Positions 3,454 through 64,000 of a DNA stretch of 64,000 nucleotides are shown here, in pieces. Under the pieces are notes generated by a model. That model did not search any database. It saw only the letters and a list, made by a program, of their open reading frames with translations, and was not told where the DNA came from. The stretch is taken from the sequence record OR896837.1; one strand, written 5' to 3'. Source of the stretch: Escherichia phage vB_Eco_mar004NP2. The position numbers and the translations under genes are program-made. Position 1 is the stretch's first letter; each line of letters starts with the position of its first letter.

Positions 3454-6243
3454 GTGTTTTCAATCCTACAAGGTCATGCAGGATTTCATCGCGATTTAGC
3501 CACAGGCAATTGGCGAGAAGTTAAAGCAGAAGATTATCTTTTTGCTAAAAGATTTTCCTCAAAGCATCCTGAAGGTAAACCAGCTTCAATGCCCTTCAAG
3601 TTTGATGTAATTGACGAAGTTGATCCTCAAACCCTAGTAGAAATGCTTCCTCTTATGAGACGTTTAACGTCTGACCCTCATATCGTTGCGGTACGAGGTC
3701 GATGTCTTGCACCTAAAAATAATGTGCGGCGTAAGAATGGCAACTTTAATGTATCTAACCCAAGTCATATAATTGCAATGGATGTGGATGGTATTGTAGA
3801 TACAGGTGGTTGTAACAAGTTTGATCTTGTTGGCATGGCTCGACATATTATTAGAATGTTAAATAGTATTAGTGAGGATATGTTTCCTCTTGATGCAGGG
3901 TTTATCGCTCATGCATCGTCTTCGGCTGGGCTAAAACCAGGTATCCGAATGCACTTAATACTAGAATCTAATGTTAAAGTAACTCAGGGTCAAATCAAAT
4001 TCTTATTTACATCTATCAACGAAAGTAGTAGACAAAAGTATGGCTTTGATATTGCCGACTTAGCTTATTACTCTTCCGTACAGCTCCATTATTTTGCAGA
4101 TCCGTTATTTACCGATGGTATAGTAGATCCGTTTAAAGAGGAGGGTGCTTCACGTCTGGTATTTGTTAAGGGTTCTAAAGTAAATTTACCCAATAATCTG
4201 GTTGACTATGAAACAACTAGAGGTGAGTTTAAAGAAGAGTTCTACTCTTTACTAGACCAAATTAAGGGTAAAAAAGCTGCCTCTGATAAAGTAGAAGAAA
4301 CCATCAGCGAACTAGAAGAAGCTGAGGATGGAGTGTATCTACGTATTATTCCTAAACTCTATCACAGGGCTTTAGAGGATGGTGTTGATTTTGCATGGCT
4401 AGAAAAAGAAATCCGTCCAGCCTTATCAGAATATATTGCAACTAAAGATAATAGTCGTAATATTCAAGACTACTTTAATAATGGTCGTAAACAGGCTCTA
4501 AAAGCATTTGTTAATAATTCTAAACGTTATATACCGGATGTTTTAAAAGGTATTCCACTCAAAAAGCTAGAAACTAACTCTTTAGAGACTGATAACTTCT
4601 TGAAATTAAATACTGTGCCACCAGAAGGTTATATGACTTTTGTAAAAGCGAGTCTAGGTACAGGTAAAACTACAGCGGTTGTGCGTTGGTTAGATTCAGG
4701 AGTTATTAAAGGTAATTTCTTAGCAATTACCAATACTCGAGCACTGGTATCTTCCAATGCTAAGAAATTTAGTGCAGGACAATATGATAAGTCTGTAGAT
4801 ATGCTTAATTTTAAGCGTGGTGCTATTGACCGTATGTCCACAACTATTCACTCTTTGCATAAGTTCAAGAGTTTTATTGGTCAAATTGATGCAATCTTTA
4901 TCGATGAATGTGATGCAGTAATGAACGACCTATTATTCGCCCCGGTTGTTAAACAACGTCGTGAATGTATTCAGGTTCTTCGGGATATTCTTGCAACTGC
5001 AAAAATCATTATATTATCAGATGGTGATATTAGTGCAGAAACAATTGAAGCATATGGTTCTTTGATCGAGTTTGATAAACCGGTTGCATTTTATAATCAT
5101 CACCGTAAAATGCTGTCAAAAGCTCATGCTTATGAGTTTCCTGATGAATCCAGTATTTGGGTTGCACTTCAGACTTCTCTAGAGATGGGTGAGAAATCTA
5201 TTCTGGTATCTGATTGTGGCCCTGATGAGCTGAATGAGAAGGGTATGGCATTACGTCGTAATACGGGTGCGTTAGTTAAGGAAATCCACTCAAATTCTAC
5301 GTCTGATGTGGATATTAGACGTATTCTGGATTACACAACTAATGAGCTGATTGATCAACAAATTGATTGCTTATTATGTAGTCCATCCGTAACGAGTGGA
5401 GTTGACTTCAACTATTTTGATAACGTATTCGTTATTACTAGAACCAGTAACCAAGCGCCAAACATGCGTTTTCAAGCAATCAGGCGCGACCGTGGTGCTC
5501 AGAATATCTATTATTTTATTGATAAATCTACGAGTGGATTCTCTGCAGGTTCTGAACAATATAATATTGATGAGGGCTGGCTGGAGTTAGCACAGCAATT
5601 ATATGCACGTCGTAGAGAGCTGGAATCTAGAAATTATACTAGTACTTTACGTTATTACTTGCTTGATCAGGGTGCAACTATTGATATTTTCAGCGAAAGC
5701 TGGGGAACTATTGAAGGTGCAGGGAAAGAATATATGGAAGAGCGAATCAAAGCTATTCTACATTCAACTCCTGATTATTGTGCTCCACGTCATGCGGATG
5801 CGTATGAAGCTAAACTACTTCTTGTTCGCTATTATCATCTTGAGTCTATTAAAGATGTAACAGTTGAGCATGTTGAACAATATATCAAGGATAAACCTAA
5901 TGATCGAGCGGCATTCTTCCATAAAATGCACGAGATGTTTTGGGAAGATATTAAGAAGTGTTCAAACGTCACTATCAAACCATTCATAGAAGCTCTGAAA
6001 GGTAAGAAGAAGGACTTCTTCCTTAAAACAGGTCAGAGTGCTAACCCAAAATATGCTAGAATGTATCTTGGTATGATGGGTATTGGTAAGGATATGAACA
6101 CTGAAAATATTGTAGACTGGTACAGAACCTATTGTAAAATCGAGTGTATGCCAATTCCTTATAAGTTTATGACTGATGAGGAGAAACATATGCATGATGA
6201 AGCAATGGCAGAGCTAGGTGCTAGAAATGACAGTGAAGAATAA
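3454..6243 (+). CDS. replication helicase, UL9/origin-binding-protein-like SF2 helicase with a possible primase-like N-terminal domain
   Basis: Walker A ASLGTGKTT and Walker B IFIDECDAV in the translation; N-terminal AMDVDG acidic motif. Start placed at GTG 3454 with AGGAG 7 nt upstream (track start 3376 is TTG). Confidence 0.6.
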   Translation: MFSILQGHAGFHRDLATGNWREVKAEDYLFAKRFSSKHPEGKPASMPFKFDVIDEVDPQTLVEMLPLMRRLTSDPHIVAVRGRCLAPKNNVRRKNGNFNVSNPSHIIAMDVDGIVDTGGCNKFDLVGMARHIIRMLNSISEDMFPLDAGFIAHASSSAGLKPGIRMHLILESNVKVTQGQIKFLFTSINESSRQKYGFDIADLAYYSSVQLHYFADPLFTDGIVDPFKEEGASRLVFVKGSKVNLPNNLVDYETTRGEFKEEFYSLLDQIKGKKAASDKVEETISELEEAEDGVYLRIIPKLYHRALEDGVDFAWLEKEIRPALSEYIATKDNSRNIQDYFNNGRKQALKAFVNNSKRYIPDVLKGIPLKKLETNSLETDNFLKLNTVPPEGYMTFVKASLGTGKTTAVVRWLDSGVIKGNFLAITNTRALVSSNAKKFSAGQYDKSVDMLNFKRGAIDRMSTTIHSLHKFKSFIGQIDAIFIDECDAVMNDLLFAPVVKQRRECIQVLRDILATAKIIILSDGDISAETIEAYGSLIEFDKPVAFYNHHRKMLSKAHAYEFPDESSIWVALQTSLEMGEKSILVSDCGPDELNEKGMALRRNTGALVKEIHSNSTSDVDIRRILDYTTNELIDQQIDCLLCSPSVTSGVDFNYFDNVFVITRTSNQAPNMRFQAIRRDRGAQNIYYFIDKSTSGFSAGSEQYNIDEGWLELAQQLYARRRELESRNYTSTLRYYLLDQGATIDIFSESWGTIEGAGKEYMEERIKAILHSTPDYCAPRHADAYEAKLLLVRYYHLESIKDVTVEHVEQYIKDKPNDRAAFFHKMHEMFWEDIKKCSNVTIKPFIEALKGKKKDFFLKTGQSANPKYARMYLGMMGIGKDMNTENIVDWYRTYCKIECMPIPYKFMTDEEKHMHDEAMAELGARNDSEE

Positions 6244-6460
6244 AAAATGGGAAACAAGGAAGTTCCCAGTAAAAGAGCGTAAAGTTCCTGTTTACGATAC
6301 TTCGGAAAAGCTATGTAGGGTGGTTCCTGCTAGATTAGCTGGCATCCCTAACATATCCGAGTGGTTACTTAAACAACGGAAAACAAACGTGTCTCTTCGC
6401 ATCGGCTTTGAATTAGATAAAGTCTATGCTGAACTTGCTTCTTTGCTCAAGGAATCGTAA
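6227..6460 (+). CDS. hypothetical protein (77 aa)
   Basis: ATG 6227 overlapping the end of the helicase gene; basic small protein; weak RBS. Confidence 0.3.
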   Translation: MTVKNKKWETRKFPVKERKVPVYDTSEKLCRVVPARLAGIPNISEWLLKQRKTNVSLRIGFELDKVYAELASLLKES

Positions 6461-6468
6461 AAATTTAT

Positions 6469-6497
6469 TTGCATAGTGCAAAAAATTTCTGTATAAT
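6469..6497 (+). promoter_or_regulatory. sigma70-like early promoter
   Basis: TTGCAT-17 nt-TATAAT, followed by AT-rich CATAAATTTGAGAGAGGAG leader ending in the RBS. Confidence 0.55.
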
Positions 6498-6528
6498 AGA
6501 TTCATAAATTTGAGAGAGGAGTTTAAAT

Positions 6529-7233
6529 ATGGCTGGTTCTCGTAGAAAGAAACATATCCATGAAATCCCGGATGAAGTCTTTAAAAAGGTTATAGAGCAT
6601 CTGGAGAACGGTGGTACTAAGAAAGCAGCATGTGAAATGCTCGGCGTATCATCTAATCCAACTATGGAAAGAATGATTGAAGAATGGCAAGACCGCCAGA
6701 TTCAAGTTGCCGAAATGAAGAAAAAGAAACGTGGCACACTCATTGAAGGCATTGAGTTAGCTAACGTTATTGAGCAGTATTTATCTGGTGATTCTTTTGA
6801 AGAAATTGCCGATCGTAATTACCGCTCTGTAGCAATGGTTAAATCTGTTCTGGAACGATATGGTGCTCTACTTCGTTTGAACGATATTGTAGATCCATTG
6901 AATCCTCCAATTATTCCTGATGATGCTGTAGCAGAAGAATTTGCAGTTGGTGAGCTTGTTTGGGTTCCTGGATACCAGTGTATCGGTGAAATCAAAAAAG
7001 CAATGGATAATCCTGTTGGTTGTTACCGTGTATGGCTTCTATCGGAAGGCAAACAACAGAACGTCCATTATATGAATTACGAGTTGGCCTCTGTTAAGCA
7101 TCTAGAAAAGTTAGGGGTTGACGTAAAATCTCTAGGGTACAAGTGGACTCGTGAAGAAATTATTACGTTGATTAACGAAGCTGTTAAGGCCGCCCTGAAG
7201 CTTGATAAAGAAAAAGGAAAACGCCGTGAGTAA
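6529..7233 (+). CDS. putative DNA-binding (HTH) early protein
   Basis: N-terminal GGTKKAACEMLGVSSNPTMERM resembles a helix-turn-helix; strong RBS GAGAGGAG. Confidence 0.45.
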   Translation: MAGSRRKKHIHEIPDEVFKKVIEHLENGGTKKAACEMLGVSSNPTMERMIEEWQDRQIQVAEMKKKKRGTLIEGIELANVIEQYLSGDSFEEIADRNYRSVAMVKSVLERYGALLRLNDIVDPLNPPIIPDDAVAEEFAVGELVWVPGYQCIGEIKKAMDNPVGCYRVWLLSEGKQQNVHYMNYELASVKHLEKLGVDVKSLGYKWTREEIITLINEAVKAALKLDKEKGKRRE

Positions 7234-7489
7234 GCTAACAGATTTGCTTAAAGATGGAGATGTAAAATATCTCCAGCGGGATAGCTGGGGTAATTGGGAC
7301 GCTCGTACTTATTACTCTACTATTATAAAAGTAGATGTTGATAATAATGATATTGTCGAGTTTACCTGGTGGCTCAATGAAGGTGGGTATACCAAGTTCG
7401 ATATAAAAGACGCAACATGGAAAACCTCCTCCCTAACCCTAGAAGAAGCTCTGGCGGATGATTGGGAGATCGTTGAGCTAGATGTGTAG
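7226..7489 (+). CDS. hypothetical protein
   Basis: GTG 7226 with AAGGA 7 nt upstream, overlapping the previous stop (track start 7202 is TTG). Confidence 0.4.
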   Translation: MSKLTDLLKDGDVKYLQRDSWGNWDARTYYSTIIKVDVDNNDIVEFTWWLNEGGYTKFDIKDATWKTSSLTLEEALADDWEIVELDV

Positions 7490-7510
7490 CAATTACAGAA
7501 AAAATTTCAG

Positions 7511-7539
7511 TTGCTTAATCCTATAATTCTTGATATAAT
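7511..7539 (+). promoter_or_regulatory. sigma70-like early promoter
   Basis: TTGCTT-17 nt-TATAAT. Confidence 0.55.
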
Positions 7540-7596
7540 ATTCTCATAGTTTGAAAGAACTATTCTGTTTAATTATTAATTAAGGAAATATAAAAT

Positions 7597-8007
7597 ATGA
7601 CTACTCCAACTCAGTGGACTGATGAACTGTTCGAAAAAATGTCTTCCGAATACGTTGCTCGTATGGAGCAATTCCCAGAGGATGAACGTCCGGGTGTTAG
7701 CATGGAAATTGTTAGCGAAATTGCCCAGGAAAATGGTGTAACTCCGAACGGTTTTCGTATGAAGCTAACTAAAGCAGGTGTGTATATCAAGAAAGCTGCT
7801 GGCTCTGCTTCTAAATCTAGCGCATCTACTGGAGAAAAAGCTTCTGGTGGTTCTCGTACTTCCAAAGCCCAAGCTCATGCCGATCTTCGTTCAGCATTCT
7901 CTGATGCTGGCTTAGCACCAGATTTTCTGGATGATGCAATTATCGACAAACTGACCGGTAAAGCGGCTGCTCATCTGGCAGAAGCAATCCGAGCTATCAC
8001 TAAGTAA
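7597..8007 (+). CDS. hypothetical abundant early protein with one HeH-like module
   Basis: Codons biased to GCT/CGT/CTG/GAA; contains TPNGFRMKLTKAGVYIKKA, related to the repeats of ORF 10733..11500. Confidence 0.5.
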   Translation: MTTPTQWTDELFEKMSSEYVARMEQFPEDERPGVSMEIVSEIAQENGVTPNGFRMKLTKAGVYIKKAAGSASKSSASTGEKASGGSRTSKAQAHADLRSAFSDAGLAPDFLDDAIIDKLTGKAAAHLAEAIRAITK

Positions 8008-8043
8008 TTTCTAGATAAATCCACCAACAAAAGGAACACAGTT

Positions 8044-8337
8044 ATGACCAAAGCTGAAATTATCGCACAATGTGAAAAATTTGGTGAGTTTTATCTTCAT
8101 TACGAGAAACTTCGTCAGAAAGGAACCACGTACCTTCAGGGTACGATGGAATTTGATCCAGCCCAAGATAAATATCTGGCTGAGCGTATTAAACGTGAAC
8201 GTATTCGTAAAGCGAAAGATGATGAGATCCTTGTCTTCTCTCGTACTAATGATAGCTTCCGTTTTATTCCTGTCGAGAAAGTCCGTCGTGTGACTAGCCT
8301 CCAATCAGAGTTAGATCGTGCTTCTCCAGTAGGCTGA
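8044..8337 (+). CDS. hypothetical protein
   Basis: 97-aa ORF with RBS AAGGA; basic, lysine/arginine-rich. Confidence 0.45.
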   Translation: MTKAEIIAQCEKFGEFYLHYEKLRQKGTTYLQGTMEFDPAQDKYLAERIKRERIRKAKDDEILVFSRTNDSFRFIPVEKVRRVTSLQSELDRASPVG

Positions 8338-8350
8338 TAAGAAACCAATT

Positions 8351-8378
8351 AGCCCCTATATGGGGCTTTTTGTGTATT
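8351..8378 (+). terminator. rho-independent terminator
   Basis: AGCCCC-TATAT-GGGGCT followed by TTTTTGTGTATTT. Confidence 0.6.
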
Positions 8379-8390
8379 TGGGATATGTAA

Positions 8391-8699
8391 ATGAGCGAAC
8401 AGGTAAATCAAAACTATGAAGGACACGTTGATGACCAGTCCATCATACTCTGGGAGAAGGAGGGAGAACAAGTAAGATTAACAGTATCTGAATTTCGTGG
8501 GAATCTATACATGGGTATTCGTTACTGGCTTCTTGATATTAATGATGAATGGTTTCCAACGAAATCTGGCTTCTCTTTTCCTTACACCCTAGAAACAACA
8601 TCGCAGCTTTTCTATGCGTTTACACAGATTCTTAGCGAATCTGAGGTTTTACATGAAGTACAGAAACGAGCTGAAGAACTCAAAGCCAAGAATGCCTAG
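8391..8699 (+). CDS. PC4/p15-like ssDNA-binding protein (putative)
   Basis: Pattern RLTVSEFRGNLYMGIRYW...WFPTKSGFSFP resembles the PC4 coactivator fold signature (K..VS...F.G...IDIREYW...PTKKGISL). Confidence 0.4.
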   Translation: MSEQVNQNYEGHVDDQSIILWEKEGEQVRLTVSEFRGNLYMGIRYWLLDINDEWFPTKSGFSFPYTLETTSQLFYAFTQILSESEVLHEVQKRAEELKAKNA

Positions 8700-8718
8700 T
8701 TCTTGGCTTTTTCTTTAT
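8684..8718 (+). terminator. rho-independent terminator
   Basis: AGCCAAGAA-TGCCTAG-TTCTTGGCT followed by TTTTCTTTAT; the stop codon lies in the loop. Confidence 0.55.
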
Positions 8719-8726
8719 AAATGTAT

Positions 8727-8755
8727 TTGCTTTCAACTCAGTTTTGTTATATAAT
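8727..8755 (+). promoter_or_regulatory. sigma70-like early promoter
   Basis: TTGCTT-17 nt-TATAAT followed by TATAAATTAATGAGAG leader. Confidence 0.55.
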
Positions 8756-8786
8756 ATTTATATAAATTAATGAGAGATACAAATAA

Positions 8787-9758
8787 ATGACTAATGTAAA
8801 AGACTTTATTAAACGTTGCCAAGAAGCATATTACCAGGGAATGTCTTTAATCTCTGACGAAGAATATGATCGTCTGATTAAAAGATTTCCGTTAGAAGAA
8901 GAGATCGGGCCTAAGGGCGATATTCCACATCTGTATCGTATGTATTCTTTACAGAAAGTTTATTATAATCGTGGAGATAAACCTCCGTTTAACCCATTAG
9001 GTCAGGTAGAAACTGATAAGTTAGATGGTTGTGCGATTTCTCTGTTATATATTAATGGCGAATTTGTTCAAGCATTAACTCGTGGTAATGGCATTCTAGG
9101 GAATGATGTCACAAGCAACGTAAGATTGCTGAACATCCCTAAAAAGATTTCCCAAAAAGTACCTACTCAAATCACTGGTGAAGTTCTAATTACAAAAGAA
9201 GTAGAAAATAAACGTAACTTTGCCTCTGGTGCTATTAACCTCAAGGATAGAGATGATTTCGTACAACGTATCGGGGAAGGTGGTTTAATCTTCGTTGCAT
9301 ATGGTATCCAGTGTTCTGCTGAATCTGTAGGTATTACAGAAGCGTATTTAAAAGATATGCTTTGGCTGGAGAATGAGAACTTCTTAACAGTTGTTAATGT
9401 GCGTTCCTTCTTTAAATGGATTCCGACGGACGGTAAAGTTGTTCGTATCAATGACAATAACAAATTCTTCCGAGAAGGCTGGACTAATAAATTCCCTCGT
9501 GGAGCATTCGCTATTAAAGAGGATGAAGAAGGCGAAATTACAACTCTTACTAAAGTTGAATGGCAGGTAGGGGCTTCTGGTAAAGTAACTCCAGTTGGTT
9601 ATTTTGAACCGGTAATTATTGATGATGCTACAATTGTTAAAGCGACTCTTAATAACGTTGATTATATTAACTCTCTCGATCTAGAGATCGGTTGCCAGAT
9701 TCGAGTGATTCGTGCTGGTGGTGTAATCCCGTGTATAGTAGAGCGAGTATACGATTAA
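8787..9758 (+). CDS. NAD-dependent DNA ligase, N-terminal (adenylation/OB) subunit
   Basis: LigA-type adenylation motif ETDKLDGCAIS (KxDG lysine), RGNG and EGxV motifs; 323 aa; ends before the Zn-finger/HhH/BRCT part. Confidence 0.8.
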   Translation: MTNVKDFIKRCQEAYYQGMSLISDEEYDRLIKRFPLEEEIGPKGDIPHLYRMYSLQKVYYNRGDKPPFNPLGQVETDKLDGCAISLLYINGEFVQALTRGNGILGNDVTSNVRLLNIPKKISQKVPTQITGEVLITKEVENKRNFASGAINLKDRDDFVQRIGEGGLIFVAYGIQCSAESVGITEAYLKDMLWLENENFLTVVNVRSFFKWIPTDGKVVRINDNNKFFREGWTNKFPRGAFAIKEDEEGEITTLTKVEWQVGASGKVTPVGYFEPVIIDDATIVKATLNNVDYINSLDLEIGCQIRVIRAGGVIPCIVERVYD

Positions 9759-14392: not shown

Positions 14393-16960
14393 TTGAAAAT
14401 CGCAGTAGTTGATAAAGCTCTAAATAACACTCGTTATGATAAACATTTCCAGCTATACGGCGAGGAAGTTGATGTATTCCATATGTGTAACGAGAAGTTA
14501 TCCGGTCGTTTGCTCAAAAAGCATATTACTATCGGGACTCCGGAAAACCCATTTGACCCGAATGATTATGATTTTGTTATACTGGTAGGTGCCGAGCCTT
14601 TCCTGTACTTTGCAGGTAAGAAAGGCATTGGTGACTATACTGGTAAACGTGTAGAGTATAATGGATATGCTAACTGGATTGCGAGTATCAGCCCCGCCCA
14701 GTTACACTTTAAGCCTGAAATGAAACCAGTTTTCGATGCAACAGTAGAGAATATCCACGATATTATCAATGGTCGTGAGAAGATTGCAAAAGCTGGTGAT
14801 TACCGTCCTATTACTGACCCTGACGAGGCGGAAGAATATATCAAGATGGTGTATAATATGGTTATCGGACCTGTCGCATTCGACTCCGAAACCTCAGCAC
14901 TATACTGTCGAGATGGTTATCTGCTTGGTGTTTCTATGTCTCACCAAGAGTATCAGGGTGTATATATCGATTCTGATTGTCTCACAGAGGTTGCAGTATA
15001 TTATCTCCAGAAAATTCTGGATAGTGAAAACCACACTATTGTTTTTCACAACTTGAAGTTTGATATGCACTTTTATAAGTACCATCTGGGACTTACTTTT
15101 GATAAAGCACATAAAGAACGCAGGCTCCATGATACCATGTTGCAGCATTATGTTCTAGATGAGCGTCGTGGTACTCATGGCTTGAAATCTCTAGCAATGA
15201 AGTATACCGATATGGGCGACTATGACTTTGAACTAGATAAGTTCAAGGAGGATTACTGCAAAGCACATAAAATCAAGAAAGAAGATTTCACCTATGATTT
15301 AATTCCGTTTGATATTATGTGGCCTTACGCTGCAAAAGATACCGATGCCACCATACGTTTGCACAACTTCTTCTTATCAAAAATTGAGAAGAATGAAAAA
15401 CTTTGCAGTCTGTATTATGATGTCCTAATGCCTGGTTGTGTATTTCTCCAGCGTGTTGAGGATCGTGGTGTACCTATTTCTATTGATCGTTTAAAAGAAG
15501 CTCAGTACCAGTTAACCCATAATCTGAATAAGGCTCGTGAGAAACTGTATACTTATCCAGAAGTCGTTCAGCTAGAAAAAGACCAGAACGAGGCGTTTAA
15601 CCCAAACTCTGTTAAGCAACTGCGTGTTCTTCTGTTTGATTATGTTGGCTTAACTCCAACAGGTAAATTGACGGATACTGGGGCAGACTCTACAGATGCA
15701 GAAGCTCTGAATGAACTGGCTACGCAGCATCCAATTGCTAAGACTCTACTAGAGATTCGTAAGCTGACTAAGCTGATCTCTACTTATGTTGAGAAGATTC
15801 TTCTGAGTATTGATGCAGATGGTTGCATTCGTACTGGTTTCCATGAACATATGACTACTTCTGGTCGTCTGAGTTCTTCTGGTAAACTGAACCTGCAACA
15901 GTTACCTCGTGATGAATCTATTATCAAGGGTTGTGTAGTAGCTCCTCCCGGGTATCGTGTAATTGCATGGGACTTAACAACTGCGGAAGTTTATTATGCT
16001 GCTGTTCTATCTGGTGATAGAAATATGCAACAAGTATTTATCAACATGAGAAATGAACCTGATAAATACCCTGACTTCCACTCTAACATCGCACACATGG
16101 TATTTAAACTCCAATGCGAGCCTCGTGATGTTAAAAAGTTATTCCCAGCTCTGCGTCAGGCTGCTAAAGCAATCACCTTTGGTATTCTGTATGGTTCTGG
16201 CCCGGCTAAAGTAGCTCATTCTGTTAACGAAGCTCTTCTGGAACAGGCTGCTAAGACAGGTGAACCGTTTGTAGAGTGTACTGTTGCGGATGCGAAGGAC
16301 TATATCGAAACTTACTTCGGTCAGTTCCCGCAGCTTAAGCGTTGGATTGATAAGTGTCACGACCAGATCAAGAATCATGGATTTATCTATAGTCACTTTG
16401 GTCGTAAACGTCGTCTGCATAATATCCATTCCGAAGACCGTGGTGTTCAGGGTGAAGAAATCCGTTCTGGATTTAACGCAATCATTCAGTCTGCTTCTTC
16501 CGACAGTCTCCTTTTAGGTGCTGTAGATGCAGATAATGAGATCATTTCTCTTGGCCTAGAACAAGAGATGAAGATTGTTATGCTAGTTCATGACTCCGTA
16601 GTTGCTATTGTTCGTGAAGACTTGATCGACCAATACAATGAAATCCTGATTCGTAATATTCAGAAAGACCGTGGTATTAGTATTCCTGGCTGTCCGATTG
16701 GTATTGATTCAGATTCTGAAGCAGGAGGTTCTCGTGACTATTCTTGTGGTAAGATGAAGAAACAGCACCCATCAATCGCTTGTATTGATGATGATGAATA
16801 TACTCGTTATGTCAAGGGTGTATTACTTGATGCAGAGTTCGAGTATAAGAAACTAGCTGCAATGGATAAAGAGCATCCAGATCATAGCAAGTACAAGGAT
16901 GATAAGTTTATTGCTATATGTAAAGATTTGGATAACGTGAGAAGGATTCTCGGTGCTTAA
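14393..16960 (+). CDS. DNA polymerase, family A with 3'-5' exonuclease domain
   Basis: 855 aa; exonuclease motifs (VAFDSETSAL, YAAKDTDAT) and Pol-I-type polymerase motifs (RQAAKAITFGILYGSG, VMLVHDS); TTG start with AGAGGAG RBS; 855 aa matches the T5 polymerase length as I recall it. Confidence 0.95.
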   Translation: MKIAVVDKALNNTRYDKHFQLYGEEVDVFHMCNEKLSGRLLKKHITIGTPENPFDPNDYDFVILVGAEPFLYFAGKKGIGDYTGKRVEYNGYANWIASISPAQLHFKPEMKPVFDATVENIHDIINGREKIAKAGDYRPITDPDEAEEYIKMVYNMVIGPVAFDSETSALYCRDGYLLGVSMSHQEYQGVYIDSDCLTEVAVYYLQKILDSENHTIVFHNLKFDMHFYKYHLGLTFDKAHKERRLHDTMLQHYVLDERRGTHGLKSLAMKYTDMGDYDFELDKFKEDYCKAHKIKKEDFTYDLIPFDIMWPYAAKDTDATIRLHNFFLSKIEKNEKLCSLYYDVLMPGCVFLQRVEDRGVPISIDRLKEAQYQLTHNLNKAREKLYTYPEVVQLEKDQNEAFNPNSVKQLRVLLFDYVGLTPTGKLTDTGADSTDAEALNELATQHPIAKTLLEIRKLTKLISTYVEKILLSIDADGCIRTGFHEHMTTSGRLSSSGKLNLQQLPRDESIIKGCVVAPPGYRVIAWDLTTAEVYYAAVLSGDRNMQQVFINMRNEPDKYPDFHSNIAHMVFKLQCEPRDVKKLFPALRQAAKAITFGILYGSGPAKVAHSVNEALLEQAAKTGEPFVECTVADAKDYIETYFGQFPQLKRWIDKCHDQIKNHGFIYSHFGRKRRLHNIHSEDRGVQGEEIRSGFNAIIQSASSDSLLLGAVDADNEIISLGLEQEMKIVMLVHDSVVAIVREDLIDQYNEILIRNIQKDRGISIPGCPIGIDSDSEAGGSRDYSCGKMKKQHPSIACIDDDEYTRYVKGVLLDAEFEYKKLAAMDKEHPDHSKYKDDKFIAICKDLDNVRRILGA

Positions 16961-53641: not shown

Positions 53642-54376
53642 TTAGGCAACTTTTAATTTCTCAATATATTGTTGAGGACTGCAACTATATTCTGCGCGTT
53701 CTTCCTCGGTCATACCTTCCCAGCATAATTTTAAACGGTCAGCTAGGAATTGATAATCATTATCATCGTCGAGAGATTCATCAATAAAGGTTTCACCTAT
53801 CAATGCCACGCCGATTGATAGAATATCATTAACGGCTTGTGCGTCCAGCGTTTTAAATCCGTATGACGCTGCCGCTGATAGCACGCCTTTATGATCATCA
53901 ATCATTGTAAAATCAGCGTTAGGATATAACTGTTTAAATAATTCAAAATAATAAGATTTATATACTGCGTCTTTGCTGTGGTATATTTCGCTAACCTTAT
54001 CAGCTTTAAAATATTTGTGTAGTGTATCGCGGGAAAATACGCGGATATTACTATTACCACGACCGCGCAACCCTTGTTTACGCAAGAAATAATAGTCCGA
54101 CTTACTCATCAGTCGAGCGGTGCAAATAATGTTTAAAGTATTTGCGTCATTCATGCACTGGCGCATATATTCAACCAATGGCAATAAAGTATCTTGCATT
54201 ATTAAATGGTGTTTACACGCTTCATTTTTATACTTATTTAAATCTAAATTGCCCTCGCTATCAAAGCAGGGTGCTATACGATGGAAAGAATTAATGATAG
54301 TGCCGTCTAAATCCCAAATCATGACGCGGGAAATATGCGGGAAGCTGCGGGAAAGATTCATGATAGCTTTATTCAT
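53642..54376 (-). CDS. dmp: HAD-family 5'-deoxyribonucleotidase (Dmp-like pre-early protein)
   Basis: HAD motif I IWDLDGTII; 244 aa; next to the A1-like gene. Confidence 0.65.
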   Translation of the reverse strand: MNKAIMNLSRSFPHISRVMIWDLDGTIINSFHRIAPCFDSEGNLDLNKYKNEACKHHLIMQDTLLPLVEYMRQCMNDANTLNIICTARLMSKSDYYFLRKQGLRGRGNSNIRVFSRDTLHKYFKADKVSEIYHSKDAVYKSYYFELFKQLYPNADFTMIDDHKGVLSAAASYGFKTLDAQAVNDILSIGVALIGETFIDESLDDDNDYQFLADRLKLCWEGMTEEERAEYSCSPQQYIEKLKVA

Positions 54377-55200: not shown

Positions 55201-56865
55201 TTACGCAAAGAATTTACCGTTTTTAAAGTCAATCAAAGTGCGCTGACCGTTTGCATAGGTAATTAAATGCGTTTGCGTCCAGCTTGACGCGCCAACGTTG
55301 TAACCCATGTCCAGACTACCAGCTACGCCAGCGGTATACACGCCGCCATAAATGCTGGCGGTGTGAGTGTGTCCGGTGTTTAATTTGCCCAATTTCTTAA
55401 ATTGTTTAGGATTGCCACGGCTGCCGTTAATGCCGTTGTGACCGTGTACGCCGCATTCAATGCCTACAATCTTGAAAGATTGGTCAGTAGTTAGAAAAAT
55501 GGCGTTAAACTCACAACCTGCAACCTTGCGCAGCGCATAATCTAGCACGTTGAAAGTATCGTCTTTTTCTGCAATAGCTCCATAAATCGCGGCATTTAGG
55601 CGGTGATATAGTTCCGCGTTTGCTGGATCGTCTTTAATGTTAGCATTACGATCATCAAGCCAACGGGATAGCGCCAAATCGTGATTAGATTCAACAATGA
55701 TTGTTTGCGAGAAATCACGTTCCATTGATTCCAGCACGCGCCCCGTATCGATAAGATCATCTAATACCTTATCACGTCCGGCGGCGTATTGTTTTGCTAG
55801 GAATACACCGGATGCGCGGTTGTGATGGTTGCGTGATGTAAAATCATGCACGTCATGGATAAACTGATATTTAGGCTTGAGAATATCAAGCAAGCTATTT
55901 TCGCCAGCCCATGACGCAACGGCACAATCATCATCTAGTTTTTCTGCGTGAATATCGCCGTATTGCAAGCCTAAAACATGCCCCGATGTCTCATAGCATC
56001 CGGCAGGAGTAGCGCACACATTCAGATCATAAAATACCCCGCTTTCGTCCATCGTTTCGAGCTGGCGTACAAAAAATTCCCCGTCCTCGTCGAACTCGAC
56101 AATTAGCGCACCGAAGTTATGCAGCGCCTCGGCCTTTTGTCCTGCTTTCTGCTGAATGTAGTTTTTGAGCGTTGCCGTTCCGGTTGAGTACATACGGCGC
56201 ACTACTTCACCTTTTAAAGCTGGCACGCTTTCAGCGGTAATTTTAGCGTGACCAATTGCCAGACCTTCCAGATTAAGCGCCGTTGCAGTTTCAGCGAATC
56301 CAGAAAGCGGATAATCTGCGGTTGGCAAAACGTTAATTTCAGCCATGAAAGCAAAACGGCGGTTATTTAAAAACACGTTTTTATTGCAGATATATTTGTC
56401 AAATGCGGAATCATATTTTATTCCTTCTGCACCCTCGCCATTTTGAAAACCGTTTTTGTTATAAATAAACTTGCTAACCAGCAAATCAGCGCCGATATAT
56501 TTAGCAAATTGCTCCAATGAGGCTAAAAAGTTTTTATGCGGGAAAGTATTATTCTGAATCGACGTAATAATAAAGCGTTTACCCTGCTTTACTTCCCATT
56601 GCTCAACCGTGCTAGAAACAATCCCCGCCGCTTCTGGACGCTCATCGTTTTTAATGGCTTTTGCTACTTTCGCCGCTTTCGGTTTAGCTGGTTTATTTGC
56701 TTCCAACCAGTCGCAGATAGCGGTCGAGTGTTTTGTTGTATCGTAGACCGCTTTTGATATATCGTCGCAGACCTCCAGTTTAGTAGCGCGCAGACGTTTA
56801 CCATAGAAATTAAAGTCAGCGGCCATTTTCAGGATAACGGTTTGTTTTTCTGTGGAAATAATCAT
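55201..56865 (-). CDS. A1: A1-like pre-early metallophosphatase/nuclease
   Basis: 554 aa with calcineurin-like motifs (GDIHAE, ESNHD, GVHGHNG, GHTHT); size close to T5 A1 (about 556 aa as I recall). Confidence 0.65.
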   Translation of the reverse strand: MIISTEKQTVILKMAADFNFYGKRLRATKLEVCDDISKAVYDTTKHSTAICDWLEANKPAKPKAAKVAKAIKNDERPEAAGIVSSTVEQWEVKQGKRFIITSIQNNTFPHKNFLASLEQFAKYIGADLLVSKFIYNKNGFQNGEGAEGIKYDSAFDKYICNKNVFLNNRRFAFMAEINVLPTADYPLSGFAETATALNLEGLAIGHAKITAESVPALKGEVVRRMYSTGTATLKNYIQQKAGQKAEALHNFGALIVEFDEDGEFFVRQLETMDESGVFYDLNVCATPAGCYETSGHVLGLQYGDIHAEKLDDDCAVASWAGENSLLDILKPKYQFIHDVHDFTSRNHHNRASGVFLAKQYAAGRDKVLDDLIDTGRVLESMERDFSQTIIVESNHDLALSRWLDDRNANIKDDPANAELYHRLNAAIYGAIAEKDDTFNVLDYALRKVAGCEFNAIFLTTDQSFKIVGIECGVHGHNGINGSRGNPKQFKKLGKLNTGHTHTASIYGGVYTAGVAGSLDMGYNVGASSWTQTHLITYANGQRTLIDFKNGKFFA

Positions 56866-57216: not shown

Positions 57217-57624
57217 TTATTCACCTGCGGCCTGTTTTACTTCATCGGCAACGCCTAACAGTTGCGCTACGGCGTCCAGCGTTTCAAGTTTTGCACTTTC
57301 CAGACTTGCCAGACCGTCGGCGTCTTTAATAATGCCGGAATCAATAGCATGTTTAGCGATAACGCGTACATAGTGAGCTTTGCGGATTGAGCTACCGCCG
57401 CCAACTTTGCGAGGCTTATCGCTTTTCTGATACGCTTTTGCGCTGGTCAATTTTGATCGAACAGACACGGGAGAAGACGCGCCCACTGCTTTTGCAATCT
57501 CTTTTAAACCGTCGCTATTTGCGAAATCTAAACCGTTTTCATTAATTAACTGCTGGTACATAGAAACAGCTTTTTGAGTGTTTTCTTCATTCCAAGCAAA
57601 TTTTGCGGTTTTAACGTTAGTCAT
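57217..57624 (-). CDS. hypothetical pre-early protein (candidate A2-like by size and position, unverified)
   Basis: 135 aa, immediately upstream of the A1-like gene. Confidence 0.4.
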   Translation of the reverse strand: MTNVKTAKFAWNEENTQKAVSMYQQLINENGLDFANSDGLKEIAKAVGASSPVSVRSKLTSAKAYQKSDKPRKVGGGSSIRKAHYVRVIAKHAIDSGIIKDADGLASLESAKLETLDAVAQLLGVADEVKQAAGE

Positions 57625-58406: not shown

Positions 58407-58863
58407 ATCTGCGATTCCTTATAATATAAGTTTACCGCCGATAGACTTTAAGATGTACCCAATTTTTAAAGAGCGCGGCGGTAAACTTCCCGCCGTGTAG
58501 TTCGTCATTGCCGCCCTACGAGATAAATAATAGCAAATAGTAAAAATGGCGCAACCTTATTTTTGTAAAGAAACGTAAAGACAAAATGCCACCGGACACC
58601 GTGCGGCGACCTGGGCGCGGCGCACTAAAATTAAAGGAAACGGGCGCGCGAATACCATAAAACCCAGCAGGTTGGCAAGTAATTTTTTCATTTATATTTG
58701 CCTTGCCCTACTTGACAAAAACTAAAAAGCTCGTGGTAGCGATAAACGAGGGTAGGCAATGCAATGGCATGGCTAAAAACTTCATCGCGTTATAGGGCGT
58801 TTTAGGCGCATTCTAGCCTTGTTGATAACTTATCCCCAAAAGCAAAAATGAAATTTTCCTAGT

Positions 58864-58895
58864 TATCCACTTGACTTTTATTTTCCAGTGGATAA
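58864..58895. promoter_or_regulatory. inverted pair of DnaA-box-like sites
   Basis: TTATCCACT (58864-58872) and AGTGGATAA (58887-58895) form a palindrome around TTGACTTTTATTTTCC. Confidence 0.4.
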
Positions 58896-59156
58896 CTACT
58901 TATTTTATGAAATAAATTAATTGACTTTTATTTGTTAGTATGCATCGGAAAGATAGCAGACTAATAGTTGCTAGGATGATAATCATGCTGGTGGATTGTA
59001 ATAGCCGGAACTGTTAGCAGACTATTAATCACGGAAAATCTCATTAGCCAACTAACTATTTCATGATATATAATATACTTATAAATTAATGAGAAATAAT
59101 AATTATAAGAAATCGTAACCGATAGAAATAATAACTATAAGAAACTATCGTCCTAA

Positions 59157-59286
59157 GTGAGAACCACTATCGTTTAAGTTATCCACAAGTTTATTAACAG
59201 CACAAAATGATTTGACACGATAGGCGACGATATAAGGACTTATCCACAGACTTATCCACATGTTATCCTACTGTATAAATATACAG
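59157..59286. repeat. left inverted repeat with three DnaA boxes
   Basis: TTATCCACA at 59179, 59240 and 59252; ends in palindrome CTGTATAAATATACAG; about 80% reverse-complement match to 62758-62884. Confidence 0.7.
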
Positions 59287-59552
59287 GGTAAAAAGGTAGT
59301 GTTAACAACTGCAATCAATTTTAGGCGGCCTAAAACGCTTTCTAACGAGCTAAATGCGGTGGGGTAATATTAAAGTGAAGCCTTCACCCGTCGCCCTGGT
59401 GGCTTCACCGTGTTTTGCTCTTTACTGTACCGCTGCGCGGTTAGCATAAAACTAGGCGCTAGGCAAGGAAAATAAAAAGGTAAAATAATATTTGCCTATG
59501 CTAGAAAATTGCCTTTATCATTCACTCACCGATTAACGAGGGAGGCCAACAA

Positions 59553-60314
59553 ATGAGGCTATATAAACCAGGTAACGCAACCGTCTTAAAAGGTGCGCTG
59601 CGTAACCTGCTGGACGGTAGCAGAACAACCAGCATTAAACATTTTATTAACAAGGCTGAAACTATTCACCAAAACTTTTTTGGTGATTTCGATGCCTATG
59701 ATATGAATAGTTTTCTACCGTTATATAAACAAGGGGCAACGCTTGTTTTATATAATCAAGATTATCAATTGCTCACTAGTCGAGGGCCGGATACTGATTT
59801 CATAATCGTAAAAGGTAGCACAGTAAAAGCCTATGATACTGGGGCAGGCTTAGAAGTTTTTTCAATAGAAAATTATGAAGCCAACCCCAATGATCTTTAT
59901 GATATTGAAAATTTTCTTGATTCATTTTGGCGTTATTTATCAGTTGGCTGGAATCGGTCGGATTGTGACGGGTATCGTTTCGCGGCTGTAATGGCCTTTG
60001 ATGATAACGGTAATTTTTTGTTACCGTCGGAAGTGTACCCTTATGTATATGAGGGGGATATTGAAAGCGCGGGCTTTTCTTTCTGGAAGGAGGAAGATCA
60101 GCCTATTGACAACACGGAAAAACATGCTGTAAATTCTAACACTCAAAGCGTTAACACTCAAACTACTGAAAACAAAGGAAATAATACCATGACCAAGATC
60201 GCTAATATCGTTGCCGCTAATAAATCCGCTGTTGTAAATGCTGCAAAACTGGAAGCTGGCAAAATTGCATTGACTCAAATCACGAAAGTAGCGGCTAAAA
60301 ACCGCCGTTTATGA
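59553..60314 (+). CDS. hypothetical pre-early protein
   Basis: 253 aa; RBS GAGGGAGG. Confidence 0.5.
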   Translation: MRLYKPGNATVLKGALRNLLDGSRTTSIKHFINKAETIHQNFFGDFDAYDMNSFLPLYKQGATLVLYNQDYQLLTSRGPDTDFIIVKGSTVKAYDTGAGLEVFSIENYEANPNDLYDIENFLDSFWRYLSVGWNRSDCDGYRFAAVMAFDDNGNFLLPSEVYPYVYEGDIESAGFSFWKEEDQPIDNTEKHAVNSNTQSVNTQTTENKGNNTMTKIANIVAANKSAVVNAAKLEAGKIALTQITKVAAKNRRL

Positions 60315-60544
60315 TTAAAGGTTATATTGATACGCCGATTGGTCGGGTAGTTATTGCTAACCTGCTGAGCGTAGCGGTTGACCAGTACGCCCCGAATAAC
60401 CAGAAAGCGAAAGCGGTAGCAGGCGCAGCTATGGAAGCGGCAATGCTAGAAATGGTGCAAAGTTTTAACATCGCTGAAATGATTGATGAAATGGTGAAAG
60501 GTATCGATATTTCTACTTTTACCACTAGCACCGAAAGCGAGTAA
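60311..60544 (+). CDS. hypothetical protein
   Basis: 77 aa; ATGA coupling. Confidence 0.45.
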   Translation: MIKGYIDTPIGRVVIANLLSVAVDQYAPNNQKAKAVAGAAMEAAMLEMVQSFNIAEMIDEMVKGIDISTFTTSTESE

Positions 60545-60609
60545 TAATATTTAGTGGGGATTGTTTCCCCGCTTTACTATTCCCTTATTAATTAATAGGA
60601 GGCTAATAA

Positions 60610-61104
60610 ATGGCTGAGGAAAAATATGGGTTTTCGCTAGGGGAAGTGAGCAAGGCTAAACATGATATGATCATTTTGGTCGATTGTCATACTGGCTATT
60701 GCGGTGAAGGGAATACTGAGGAATATTTTGTTCCTGCTGGTACGGATCTCGACGCTTTCGCTCATGAAATGGCTGTTGATAATGCTTCTCGTTTTGGTAG
60801 CGATGGCTATGAAGATGAGGAAACGGGCGAATGGTATGAGAATGATAATGTATATGCAAGCCTTTATCATTATCAATTAAGTAAATCCGGCACATATGTA
60901 AACGGCGGCGATCCTATTAATTCCGTCATGAAATTAATTATTAAATATGGTGGCGCTGAAATAATCGGAAATAAAGCGGTAATATACGCAAACCGACTAA
61001 AACAGCTTGTTTATATCCCTGATAGTACCCGATGGGATGAATACGCTGTTTTGCATGACGAATTGAAACGATGTTTCAATATTGAAACATTACAAGTAGT
61101 TTAA
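60610..61104 (+). CDS. hypothetical protein
   Basis: 164 aa; RBS AGGAGG. Confidence 0.5.
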   Translation: MAEEKYGFSLGEVSKAKHDMIILVDCHTGYCGEGNTEEYFVPAGTDLDAFAHEMAVDNASRFGSDGYEDEETGEWYENDNVYASLYHYQLSKSGTYVNGGDPINSVMKLIIKYGGAEIIGNKAVIYANRLKQLVYIPDSTRWDEYAVLHDELKRCFNIETLQVV

Positions 61105-61210
61105 TGTAAAGTTTTGTAAAGGTCGCCATAATTGGTGGCCTTTTTTGTTATAATGCCTTTACACCGTTTAAGGACGGTTGAAAATTTTCCCAAAAATTTG
61201 GAGGCTTAAA

Positions 61211-61441
61211 ATGGTTGCTTATTCTTCTGCTAGTCATCTGTTTACCGCGCAAGGCTGGGTATCTAATCATGCTGTCATCTATGAAATGGTGCAGGAGTTC
61301 GGTATTGTTAAAACCTATAATACCATTCAGGAACTATATAACGCCGATAAAATCGATCAGCAAACGGCTGGCTTTTTGCTGGATACCCTGAAGGCGGAAC
61401 ATTGCACCAAAAAACAAGCTGCAAAAATTGTTTTAATGTAA
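61211..61441 (+). CDS. hypothetical protein
   Basis: 76 aa from ATG 61211 with GGAGG RBS (track start 61178 is TTG). Confidence 0.4.
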   Translation: MVAYSSASHLFTAQGWVSNHAVIYEMVQEFGIVKTYNTIQELYNADKIDQQTAGFLLDTLKAEHCTKKQAAKIVLM

Positions 61442-61491
61442 TTAATAACGGGGGATATAATATCCCCCGATAACTAGGAGGATATCACAAA

Positions 61492-61641
61492 TGGTTATTT
61501 TTCGAGCTATTCTAGCAGGTATCTTGGGCGCTATTTTATCACTTTTTGCAATAGCTTTCGGCGTTCACGCGGTTATTATTGGTGCGGGTATCGCTGTATT
61601 TTCTTATCTGCTGGGCTGCATGACTAGTAAAGGAGAATAAA
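61492..61641 (+). CDS. small membrane protein (49 aa)
   Basis: Hand-translated MVIFRAILAGILGAILSLFAIAFGVHAVIIGAGIAVFSYLLGCMTSKGE; RBS AGGAGG. Confidence 0.35.
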
Positions 61642-61642
61642 A

Positions 61643-61855
61643 ATGATTCGTAACGTTTCCCTTGCACGTTCAAAAGGCTTTAAGCTGGTGGACGTTAACA
61701 CGTTCGAGCGGGAAGATTGTAAAATTGAATATGTAGCGCGAAATAAAAACGTCTTCCGTGTTACCGAGAAAAAATTCGATAAACGGGGCAACGTGATAGC
61801 TGAAACAGTTAAACATTTTGCCACCTTTTACGCTGCGTTTCGGGGAGTGCTATAA
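61643..61855 (+). CDS. hypothetical protein
   Basis: 70 aa; RBS AAAGGAGA. Confidence 0.4.
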   Translation: MIRNVSLARSKGFKLVDVNTFEREDCKIEYVARNKNVFRVTEKKFDKRGNVIAETVKHFATFYAAFRGVL

Positions 61856-61856
61856 A

Positions 61857-62201
61857 ATGGTAATTTATGAAGGCAATCGTTTTGTTGCTAATTGCCGTCC
61901 GGCATTACTAGCAAACTACTTAAATCAGCTTTCCCCAGCTTATAAGGGCGTTATTAATATTTATGAAGGCAAGGCGCATTATAAAATCAATGCGGTCGTT
62001 GCCCGTGAACTAGCGTTTCAATTTTTGACCTTTGCATCTTGCGACGTTCAGGTCATGGGTGAGGCGTTAATTGCAGAAAATGAAGATGATTTTATTAATA
62101 TTTTTCGCAAGATATGCACCGAGCGCCTGATAATGAAAGGCGCGTATATTCAATCCACTGCGGATAGTATTGAAACAGCGTTTCGAAAGGTGGCGCAATG
62201 A
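61857..62201 (+). CDS. hypothetical protein
   Basis: ATG 61857 directly after the previous stop (track start 61818 is further upstream). Confidence 0.4.
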   Translation: MVIYEGNRFVANCRPALLANYLNQLSPAYKGVINIYEGKAHYKINAVVARELAFQFLTFASCDVQVMGEALIAENEDDFINIFRKICTERLIMKGAYIQSTADSIETAFRKVAQ

Positions 62202-62301
62202 GATTATATATTTTCGCGGGTAATGTTGAGGCTGCAAATGATTCCGCTGGTGGCGATAACGTTCGCCACTATTGGCAAAAATATATTTACTAGGGGTTAT
62301 T

Positions 62302-62496
62302 ATGAACAATAAAATTGTTGTAACCAAAATCAGTACAATGGTTGATGTTTTTTACGTGCCCGATACGCCGGAGAATCGGCAAGCGGTCGAGCGTGGCGAA
62401 TATGATAGCGTTATTTATGATGCCGATGGTTATTATCAGCATTTGGTGGATTCCTACGGGGAGGAGGAAAAGATCACGCATCGACTACCAGACTAA
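62302..62496 (+). CDS. hypothetical protein
   Basis: 64 aa from ATG 62302 (MNNKIVV...). Confidence 0.3.
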   Translation: MNNKIVVTKISTMVDVFYVPDTPENRQAVERGEYDSVIYDADGYYQHLVDSYGEEEKITHRLPD

Positions 62497-62757
62497 TAAT
62501 AACGGGGCGCAACTACCAGGGAGTGCCCCCAATTCTCAAATGAGAGTGATTCTCATTTAACCGCGCCCGCGATGGTTAGCCTGCTAATGATTAAGGTGTT
62601 ACATGTCGCCTTGTGTGATCGTTAGCAAGCTAACTAATTTTTAAGCCTCCTCCAATTTTGCCCTTGTTTTAGTATCCCCATCAAAATTAAACGCGTTAGA
62701 ATGCGATTCAGGACGTTTTAGGCCTATATTAGAATTATTCACTACATAGGAATATTG

Positions 62758-62884
62758 TATATTTATACAGTAGGATAAGCTGTGGATAAGTCTGTTAATA
62801 ACGCCTCAAAATGGCTAGGATTCTGTCAAATCAAATCGTGCTGTTAATAAGTCTGTGGATAACTTAAATAACAGTGTTTCTCAC
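62758..62884. repeat. right inverted repeat with DnaA boxes
   Basis: TGTGGATAA at 62781 and 62854; reverse complement aligns with 59157-59286. Confidence 0.7.
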
Positions 62885-63060
62885 TTCCATTCTTAAATGA
62901 GAATCATTATCATTCGCATTCCACTGTCTAACCGATAATCATTTCCTTTCTTAAATGAGAATCATTTCACTTTTTGAATAGTTCTCATTTCACTTCTTAA
63001 ATGAGAATCATTATCATTCGCATTCCACTTCTTAAATGATAATGATTCTCATTCAAAGTC
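62885..63060. repeat. array of TCTTAAATGAGAATCATT-type repeats
   Basis: At least four direct or inverted copies of AAATGAGAATCATT / AATGATTCTCATT; related palindromes at 53547-53568 and 62537-62560. Confidence 0.7.
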
Positions 63061-63078: not shown

Positions 63079-63084
63079 GCTTTT

Positions 63085-63685
63085 GTGCAAATCCGACATA
63101 TGCCACCATGGATTACGCGCGGGCGTGTATGTGCGAATCCGACAATTTTTGGTAGTGTGCAAATCCGACCCCAAAAATTTTTATAGTGTGCAAATCCGAC
63201 AATGAATTTTCCCAAAAACTCCAGCAATCACGAACTGCGTTCGAATCCTGTGGGATATGTGCAAATCCGACACGGTTTTTCTAGGATTAAGATGTGCGAA
63301 TCCGACAAGATTTTTGTGACTTCGATTGGAGGGTGTGTGATTGTATAGGTTTGAGGAGAAGATGAGAGAGCGAGAGAAAATAAGGGGAGAAACTGGAGGA
63401 GCAGCATGGGTGGCGTGCAACGCCTGATTTGCTGCGTTTTTGGGAAGAGTTGAGAAGATTTGGGTTAATTTGAGATTAGTGGAGATAAAGTAAAATTTTA
63501 TTTGCTAAAGGTGGCAAAATAGCTTGACAAGTGAAAATTTTTTGTGACCCTAAAAACTCAGGCAATCATGGGCCTTCGGCCCGAAATAATGCTGCCATTT
63601 TCAGGAGATTATGTATTCATGAAAACTTAGGCGTTTGTGCAAATCCGACCATAAATTTCTAGAAACACAATGTGCAAATCCGACA
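63085..63685. repeat. dispersed array of GTGC(A/G)AATCCGAC(A/C) 14-mers
   Basis: Eight copies, at 63085, 63131, 63157, 63188, 63259, 63294, 63637 and 63672, all in the same orientation, irregular spacing, no ORF. Confidence 0.85.
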
Positions 63686-64000
63686 GTAATTTCTGGAAAT
63701 GTGTTTTCAAAAAATGTCTCCTAGAAATAACCGCCCTCCCTATAACCGCCCTGTATTAAACCGGCCTAGGATATGTAACGTTGGAGAGAAACTGCCCTAG
63801 AGTGTAAGAGTTTTCCTAGAAACTTAGGAGTCTAGAAGAAAGTGTTGTGCCATCCTAGCAGATGAGCGGCAACAGGTGTATCATCTTGAATGTAAATTAT
63901 ATGGTCAAAAAGTTTTACTTTTATTTTAAATATAAGATCCCCCAGGGTTCTCATATAGAGCTTTGCCCCCGCCAGAAGGTCTCGTGATGTTTCTAGTAAT

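Follow-up and report, generated by a model that had tools for sequence, protein, structure and literature searches.

Two arms of an imperfect inverted repeat bracket a small operon of pre-early genes in the T5-type terminal repeat of Escherichia phage vB_Eco_mar004NP2 (OR896837.1). We analysed them in a 64,000-nt stretch of this genome, hereafter the window, to which all coordinates refer unless another record is named. The search for inverted repeats across 58–64 kb of the window returned one outstanding pair, with arms of 131 nt at 59155–59285 and 62756–62886 that are 79% complementary and lie 3470 nt apart. By ungapped count, 104 of the 131 positions are identical between the arms; in 20 shuffles of the same 6 kb, no 131-nt inverted match exceeded 74. 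The repeats of about 80% identity described in an earlier note made from the sequence alone (59157–59286 against the reverse complement of 62758–62884) are therefore real and stand far above the shuffled background.

Inverted arms in a T5-type terminal repeat

The arms are already described elements of phage T5. The left arm, which runs from its outer to its inner end on the plus strand and has the leftward A2 operon on one side and the rightward 011 operon on the other, is the T5 unit IRC-spacer-IRD (inverted repeats C and D; Repeat Region 2). The right arm, running from outer to inner end on the minus strand, is IRD'-spacer-IRC' at the start of Repeat Region 3, in the injection-stop (iss) region; it follows the last pre-early gene and precedes the DRC/DRD repeats of that region. 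Both arms aligned column for column with IRC/IRD and IRD'/IRC' of the T5 record AY587007, in which inverted repeat C is annotated at 6022–6060, D at 6112–6152, D' at 9332–9372, C' at 9424–9462 and palindrome D at 9330–9349. Mean column identity in the four-way alignment was 84%, and in blastn against the same record the left arm was 78% and the right arm 92% identical to its T5 copy. Davison (bioRxiv 10.1101/866236, 2020, 'Phage T5 two-step injection') described IRC-spacer-IRD and IRD'-spacer-IRC' as 131-bp units with a constant 52-bp spacer and a variable inter-copy distance, which carry eight DnaA/DnaA* boxes in pairs 3 bp apart and are conserved in 25 T5-like phages. The same author cited Heusterspreute et al. 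(1987) for the first DnaA box and proposed that entering DNA is arrested by membrane-bound DnaA. The repeats, the DnaA boxes and the injection-stop model have thus all been published previously. The idea in the earlier note that the arms are symmetric host-DnaA sites tied to the injection stop matches the hypothesis that Davison published for these same repeats, and the finding of the repeats in itself adds nothing to the annotated and published record.

Over the 5 kb that surrounds the arms, identity to Salmonella phage PMBT29 is 99.5%. This region matches 456 phage records, nearly all from Salmonella and Escherichia phages of the T5-like group, and in records starting at the physical genome end it corresponds to about kb 5–10.4 of the annotated left terminal repeat, of the Tequintavirus type, and alignment to T5 placed the terminal repeat at about 53.52–63.56 kb of the window. 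The internal position of the terminal repeat in the window means that the source assembly is permuted, with only one copy of the repeat. Upstream of the arms lie dmp (53642–54376), A1 (55201–56865) and A2 (57217–57624), all on the minus strand. Directly outside the right arm, 62878–63056 is occupied by TTCTTAAATGAGAATCATT direct repeats and palindromes, which are DRC and palE-I of T5, and the calculated shear point of first-step transfer falls within this interval. Seven plus-strand copies of TGTGCAAATCCGAC, the T5 direct repeat D (DRD), occupy 63079–63693, across the terminal-repeat end at about 63560; the DRC and DRD repeats belong to the injection-stop region. A weak inverted similarity extends about 90 nt inward of both arms (59286–59380 and 62660–62755) and includes a motif of the type CGTTAGAA...CGTTTTAGGCC, of which another copy is found at 58781–58807 (T5 IRB/IRB').

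Between the arms, the accessory pre-early operon occupies 59553–62496 on the plus strand and consists of homologues of T5.011–T5.017. The arms do bracket this operon, as the earlier note had it, but the eight genes counted there are seven: the open reading frames at 59553–60314 and 60311–60544 belong to a single gene, the homologue of T5.011 (DUF7566), which a 1-nt deletion relative to PMBT29 has split. Its product has 330 aa in PMBT29 and is divided here into frames of 253 and 77 aa, with a break at about 60297 that reflects a genuine frameshift or else an error in sequencing. The block's seven genes (with the T5.011 homologue taken as the intact PMBT29 copy) and two genes on the A2 side were scanned against Pfam and PHROGs. 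The only hits were to the T5.015 nuclease family and to families that are DUFs or have no known function, and recombinase, invertase and transposase families were found in none of these genes. Apart from the split DUF7566 gene, the operon thus holds PHROG families without known function and a T5.015-like endonuclease that acts with host Ung. A promoter-like site (TTGCCT, 18 nt, TATCAT; 59492–59521, plus strand) lies a little upstream of the operon, where the T5 record has a promoter annotated ahead of 011.

DnaA boxes and a LexA-like palindrome

The window contains five copies of TTATCCACA, at 59179, 59240 and 59252 on the plus strand and at 62781 and 62854 on the minus strand. These are the five perfect DnaA boxes that the earlier note had listed, and all are inside the arms; 0.85 copies were expected and none of 100 shuffles reached five. 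With TTWTNCACA as the DnaA-box consensus, 9-mers clustered in the arms beyond chance (all five perfect boxes of the window), and the 58–60 kb bin held 7 sites with at most one mismatch, against an average of about 0.7 per bin. Each arm carries two box pairs with a 12-bp phase, 61 bp apart and in one orientation throughout. In the left arm, pair 1-2 (59179–59199, plus strand) is formed by TTATCCACA (59179–59187) and, 3 nt further, the non-consensus 'DnaA*' box TTATTAACA (59191–59199), and pair 3-4 (59240–59260, plus strand) by two copies of TTATCCACA separated by GAC. A third phased half-box, TTATCCTAC (59264–59272, plus strand), overlaps the left LexA-like box described below. In the right arm, on the minus strand, pair 1-2 (62842–62862) comprises TTATCCACA (62854–62862) and TTATTAACA (62842–62850), and pair 3-4 (62781–62801) comprises TTATTAACA (62793–62801) and TTATCCACA (62781–62789). 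The four DnaA/DnaA* boxes of an arm, paired 3 bp apart, start at alignment columns 34, 46, 95 and 107, with the 52-bp spacer fixed. This spacer contains a TTGACA hexamer (59212–59217 on the plus strand; TGTCAA at 62824–62829 in the right arm), which was rejected as a promoter −35 element because neither arm has an acceptable −10 element at 16–18 nt. Four further DnaA-like boxes with one mismatch are located ahead of the left arm at 58818–58898 (T5 Repeat Region 1) and include an inverted pair consisting of AGTTATCCACTTGA, 9 nt and TCCAGTGGATAACT.

The inner end of each arm holds a palindrome resembling the LexA (SOS) box TACTGTATATATATACAGTA. The left one, TACTGTATAAATATACAGGG (59269–59288), has three mismatches to this consensus and the right one, TATTGTATATTTATACAGTA (62753–62772; 'palindrome D' of T5), has two; the number of equally good matches expected in shuffles was 0.00. 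The palindrome CTGTATAAATATACAG, which the earlier note placed in both arms, is perfect in the left arm (59271–59286) and exact only there; the right copy, TTGTATATTTATACAG, carries one mutated half-site. The left arm has exactly the pattern CTGT-N8-ACAG with an AT-rich centre and TA flanks, and both half-sites are intact in 25 of the 29 distinct right arms of the comparative set introduced below. The right box of the window reads ACAA in place of ACAG; PMBT29, at 99.5% identity, retains both half-sites. In relatives, the commonest right-arm form is TACTGTATAAATATACAGTA, as such or reverse-complemented, which departs from the 20-bp LexA consensus at a single position. The two common palindrome forms in the arm alignment, TACTGTATAAATATACAGTA and TACTGTATATTTATACAGTA, are exact reverse complements, so that the asymmetric centre takes either of two orientations among phages, and no intermediate form was seen. 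Such a pattern suggests flipping templated by the palindrome and not mutation step by step. Scored with a weight matrix built from known E. coli SOS boxes, the arm sites reached 20.8–26.4, compared with 12.8–24.8 for the E. coli sites, and ranked first and second in the window. Far from the terminal repeat, at 15543–15562, a third such site (AACTGTATACTTATCCAGAA) scored 17.6, near the median of the E. coli sites in this matrix. The inner-arm palindrome is therefore a putative near-consensus LexA-type (SOS) box. No link between LexA and the T5 first-step region was found in the literature searched, an earlier mention in papers of 1987, 2005 and 2015 being possible, and the Davison preprint mentions neither LexA nor SOS; the LexA reading apparently goes beyond that preprint, with priority uncertain.

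The arms were compared across 40 loci around A2 from IMG/VR and further GenBank loci. Both arms were present at full length (129–131 nt aligned) and at the same locus in every Tequintavirus/Epseptimavirus locus covering the region; relatives that carry the gene block without the repeats, a case raised in the earlier note, were not among them. Identity of orthologous arms to those of the window was 89–98% for the right arm and 78–97% for the left, the right arm being the more strongly conserved, and the two arms within one genome were 75–81% identical. Gene conversion as the process that keeps the arms alike was rejected, since an arm resembles its orthologues far more closely than the other arm of its own genome; it is therefore selection that maintains each arm. 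The interior between the arms ranges from 1.6 to 4.1 kb and is variable in gene content, with the arms constant. The 28 distinct left and 29 distinct right arms align without any gap and share one order from outer to inner end: AAGTGAGAA, box 1, 3 nt, box 2, spacer, box 3, 3 nt, box 4, the half-box TTATCCTAC and the 20-bp palindrome. Among these 57 distinct arms, box 1 is TTATCCACA in 48 and box 4 in 40, the spacer TTGACA is present in 55 and the core of the LexA-like 20-mer is nearly invariant. Box 2 is variable (TTATYAACA or TTATCCACA), and so is box 3.

Convergent DnaA-box clusters with an adjacent strong LexA-like box are kept in Klebsiella, Pectobacterium and Proteus phages and in the Vibrio phages Ceto and L058. 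The LexA-like box was thus seen in each of the other genera sampled. The Klebsiella, Pectobacterium and Proteus relatives have two strong LexA-like sites per 14-kb locus, one at each arm in Klebsiella and Pectobacterium; the Proteus phages differ in that their A2-side site is about 300 nt inward of the nearest DnaA box. The remainder of the arm is unrecognisable in Vibrio phages, and the motifs persist. Conservation across genera is greatest at the candidate host-factor motifs, the DnaA boxes and the LexA-type palindrome, which persist across hosts with common DnaA and LexA consensus sequences. My1 and Ceto have additional half-degenerate copies of the palindrome (CTGTATATTTATACAT) beside DnaA boxes, at 7248 and 7452 in the My1 locus (L044) and at 521 in the Ceto locus (L046).

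Inversion of the gene block in other genera

Both arms were found in 37 Tequintavirus/Epseptimavirus loci (L001–L040 except L037), and in each of these the block has the orientation of the window. An inverted junction constructed in silico and compared with 50,697 phage records was held in one piece by none of the 327 matching records. In Klebsiella phages Sugarland and IME260, Pectobacterium phage My1 and its relative L050, homologues of T5.011 and of the 164-aa gene lie on the A2 strand in reversed order, and so does the homologue of the 74-aa gene in My1; both arms and the outer flanks are unchanged in orientation. The comparison of relatives for either orientation that the earlier note proposed thus finds the inverted block in these four phages and in no close relative. 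Davison (10.1101/866236) considered the Klebsiella/Pectobacterium block to have been replaced by other sequences read from the opposite strand. Because of the protein homologies, it is instead an inversion between the arms. The Proteus phages (Novosibvirus) have the T5 orientation, as shown by their T5.011 homologue, and in Vibrio phages convergent DnaA clusters lie on both sides of a block diverging from A2. The A1 tree, built by neighbour joining, resolved as (Vibrio,(Proteus,(My1,(Sugarland,(T5, Epseptimavirus))))), which implies two inversion events; one would do only if My1 and Sugarland were sister groups. The block would have been inverted by rare homologous recombination between the arms at least once in the evolution of the Demerecviridae, and does not behave as a switch. 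The arms tolerate inversion of the intervening block and probably caused it.

Candidate functions of the arms

We consider it likely that the arms, as IRC-spacer-IRD and IRD'-spacer-IRC' of a T5-type terminal repeat, serve as landing pads for host DnaA and probably LexA, the right arm being part of the injection-stop complex. The left genome end would enter the cell ahead of any phage protein, and host DnaA, probably together with LexA, would load on the arm arrays. The right arm, which abuts the injection-stop repeats, would contribute to a nucleoprotein complex that arrests transfer at about 8% of the genome, and the left arm, between divergent pre-early promoters, would be an accessory copy. 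The inverted-repeat relationship of the arms would stem from an ancient duplication and not from a programmed switch. Binding of DnaA and LexA to the arms, and any role in the injection stop, are inferred; the DnaA/injection-stop reading fits the conservation pattern described above. The accessory status of the left arm can be compared with a T5 mutant deleted from hegG to 017, which a 2026 preprint reports as viable with only smaller plaques. Mapping of the junction primers placed this deletion at about 5394–9160 of AY543070, so that it includes the left arm (6098–6227) and spares the right arm (9412–9542). The mutant is viable without the left arm, which is therefore dispensable, and with it an obligatory two-arm structure.

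Several observations weigh against a DnaA/LexA landing pad. Papers of 2023 and 2026 still treat the role of DnaA at these repeats as a proposal without a binding or genetic test, and the T5 deletion mutant means that the two-arm structure is not essential. Boxes 2 and 3 are mostly non-consensus among the distinct arms (TTATYAACA, TTTTRCACA), and the right-arm LexA half-site is mutated in the studied genome itself. Three Vibrio loci (L053–L055) have kept the DnaA boxes with a half-degenerate palindrome. A conserved phage protein such as A2 could also be the true ligand of the arms.

This last idea can be put more strongly, with the arms as recognition or cleavage sites for the pre-early proteins A2 (DNA-binding) or A1 (nuclease) and the likeness to DnaA and LexA sites incidental. 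A1 and A2 are the sole pre-early genes essential for second-step transfer and are conserved in every arm-bearing genus, the invariant AAGTGAGAA and TTGACA fit no host-factor consensus tried, and in the model of Davison (10.1101/866236) A1 is a nuclease that cuts at a palindrome to free the arrested DNA, with palD as candidate cleavage site. However, Vibrio phages, whose A2 is only 40% identical, have lost AAGTGAGAA and TTGACA, yet exact DnaA 9-mers stay in all of them, and a strong LexA-type palindrome persists in Ceto and L058. Two independent host consensus motifs matched within 0–3 mismatches are unlikely to be incidental given the shuffle expectation for the LexA-like box, and we find this explanation rather improbable. 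Somewhat less doubtful, though still unlikely in our estimate, is that the arms are transcriptional control modules unrelated to the DNA-entry stop, at which bound DnaA and/or LexA act as repressors, roadblocks or insulators; the left arm would control the strong divergent pre-early promoters and the right arm would stop 011–017 read-through into the iss repeats. LexA boxes are classical operators, and the left arm does lie between annotated divergent T5 promoters, but these promoters are about 85 and 180 bp outside the arm and not over it. A promoter-like hit on the minus strand (59305–59278, consensus-level only) has its −10 element inside the left LexA-like box; such sites are, however, no commoner than in shuffles (21 versus 15.9 ± 3.5). 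In the inverted genera the start of the operon adjoins the iss-proximal arm, so that either arm can neighbour the operon promoter. Against the control-module reading, the right arm of T5-type genomes is the better conserved of the two although it is not close to any promoter.

The orientation data bear on another alternative, in which the block is an active invertible or mobile cassette and the arms are sites of programmed inversion or transposition of the 3.5 kb between them. Both orientations do occur across genera, with homologous genes in reversed order and two events on the A1 tree, and the cassette suggested in the earlier note survives in this evolutionary sense, for Sugarland/IME260 and My1/L050. 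As an active element it does not: the Pfam and PHROGs scans of the block and its A2 side returned no family of recombinases, invertases or transposases, identity between the arms is only 79% with no sign of homogenisation, and the inverted junction is missing from all 327 closely related records. The arms also occupy one locus in all relatives examined, and their flanks (CGTCCT and CCATTC) are not direct repeats, that is, no target-site duplication surrounds them. In a blastn search of 5,426 E. coli genomes and 72,556 plasmids, the arm had no match. We therefore regard an active cassette as extremely improbable. A host or plasmid origin of the arm was rejected on the same blastn result.

A more elaborate form of the DnaA/LexA reading is conceivable, and we offer it tentatively as a possibility that is more doubtful than the landing pad itself. 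Each arm would unite a DnaA array with a high-affinity LexA operator, the half-box overlapping the latter, and LexA would take part in the injection-stop/pre-early control complex. Host DNA destruction driven by A1 would induce LexA cleavage and so help to release or reprogramme the complex, and, as a separate matter, recombination between the arms would have flipped the operon repeatedly. The T5 DNA-entry stop at 8% of the genome has been an open question since the 1960s, for which these repeats are the leading cis-acting candidate. Three results are new relative to the Davison preprint: the putative LexA box, the inversion seen in other genera, and a left arm that T5 can do without. The first two are small additions that make the old iss question easier to test; since the left copy is dispensable, the right arm is the target for mutagenesis.

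Among known systems, the closest is T5 itself, whose IRC/IRD repeats share with the arms the length of 131 bp, the position in the terminal repeat, the 52-bp spacer and the box pairs 3 bp apart. The differences are eight recognisable boxes here and seven in T5 and the point mutation in the right-arm palindrome, and otherwise nothing essential. The DnaA clusters of E. coli oriC, datA and DARS resemble the arms in having several R-type TTATCCACA 9-mers, closely phased and in one orientation, in non-coding DNA; the phase is 11 bp in the oriC arrays and 12 bp in the arms. The arms are not expected to function as origins, because T5 origins map mid-genome and the first-step DNA has no replication genes (Davison, 10.1101/866236). 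The arm palindrome shares TACTGT, an AT-rich centre and ACAGTA with the LexA operators of tisAB, recA and sulA, from which it differs in not being demonstrably placed over a promoter and in belonging to a virulent phage without an SOS-regulated lysogenic switch, LexA binding being putative here. Chloroplast inverted repeats and herpesvirus genome isomers provide a parallel for the orientation of the block, as both orientations occur in related genomes with the repeats unmoved; the flips seen here are rare evolutionary events and not population-level isomers.

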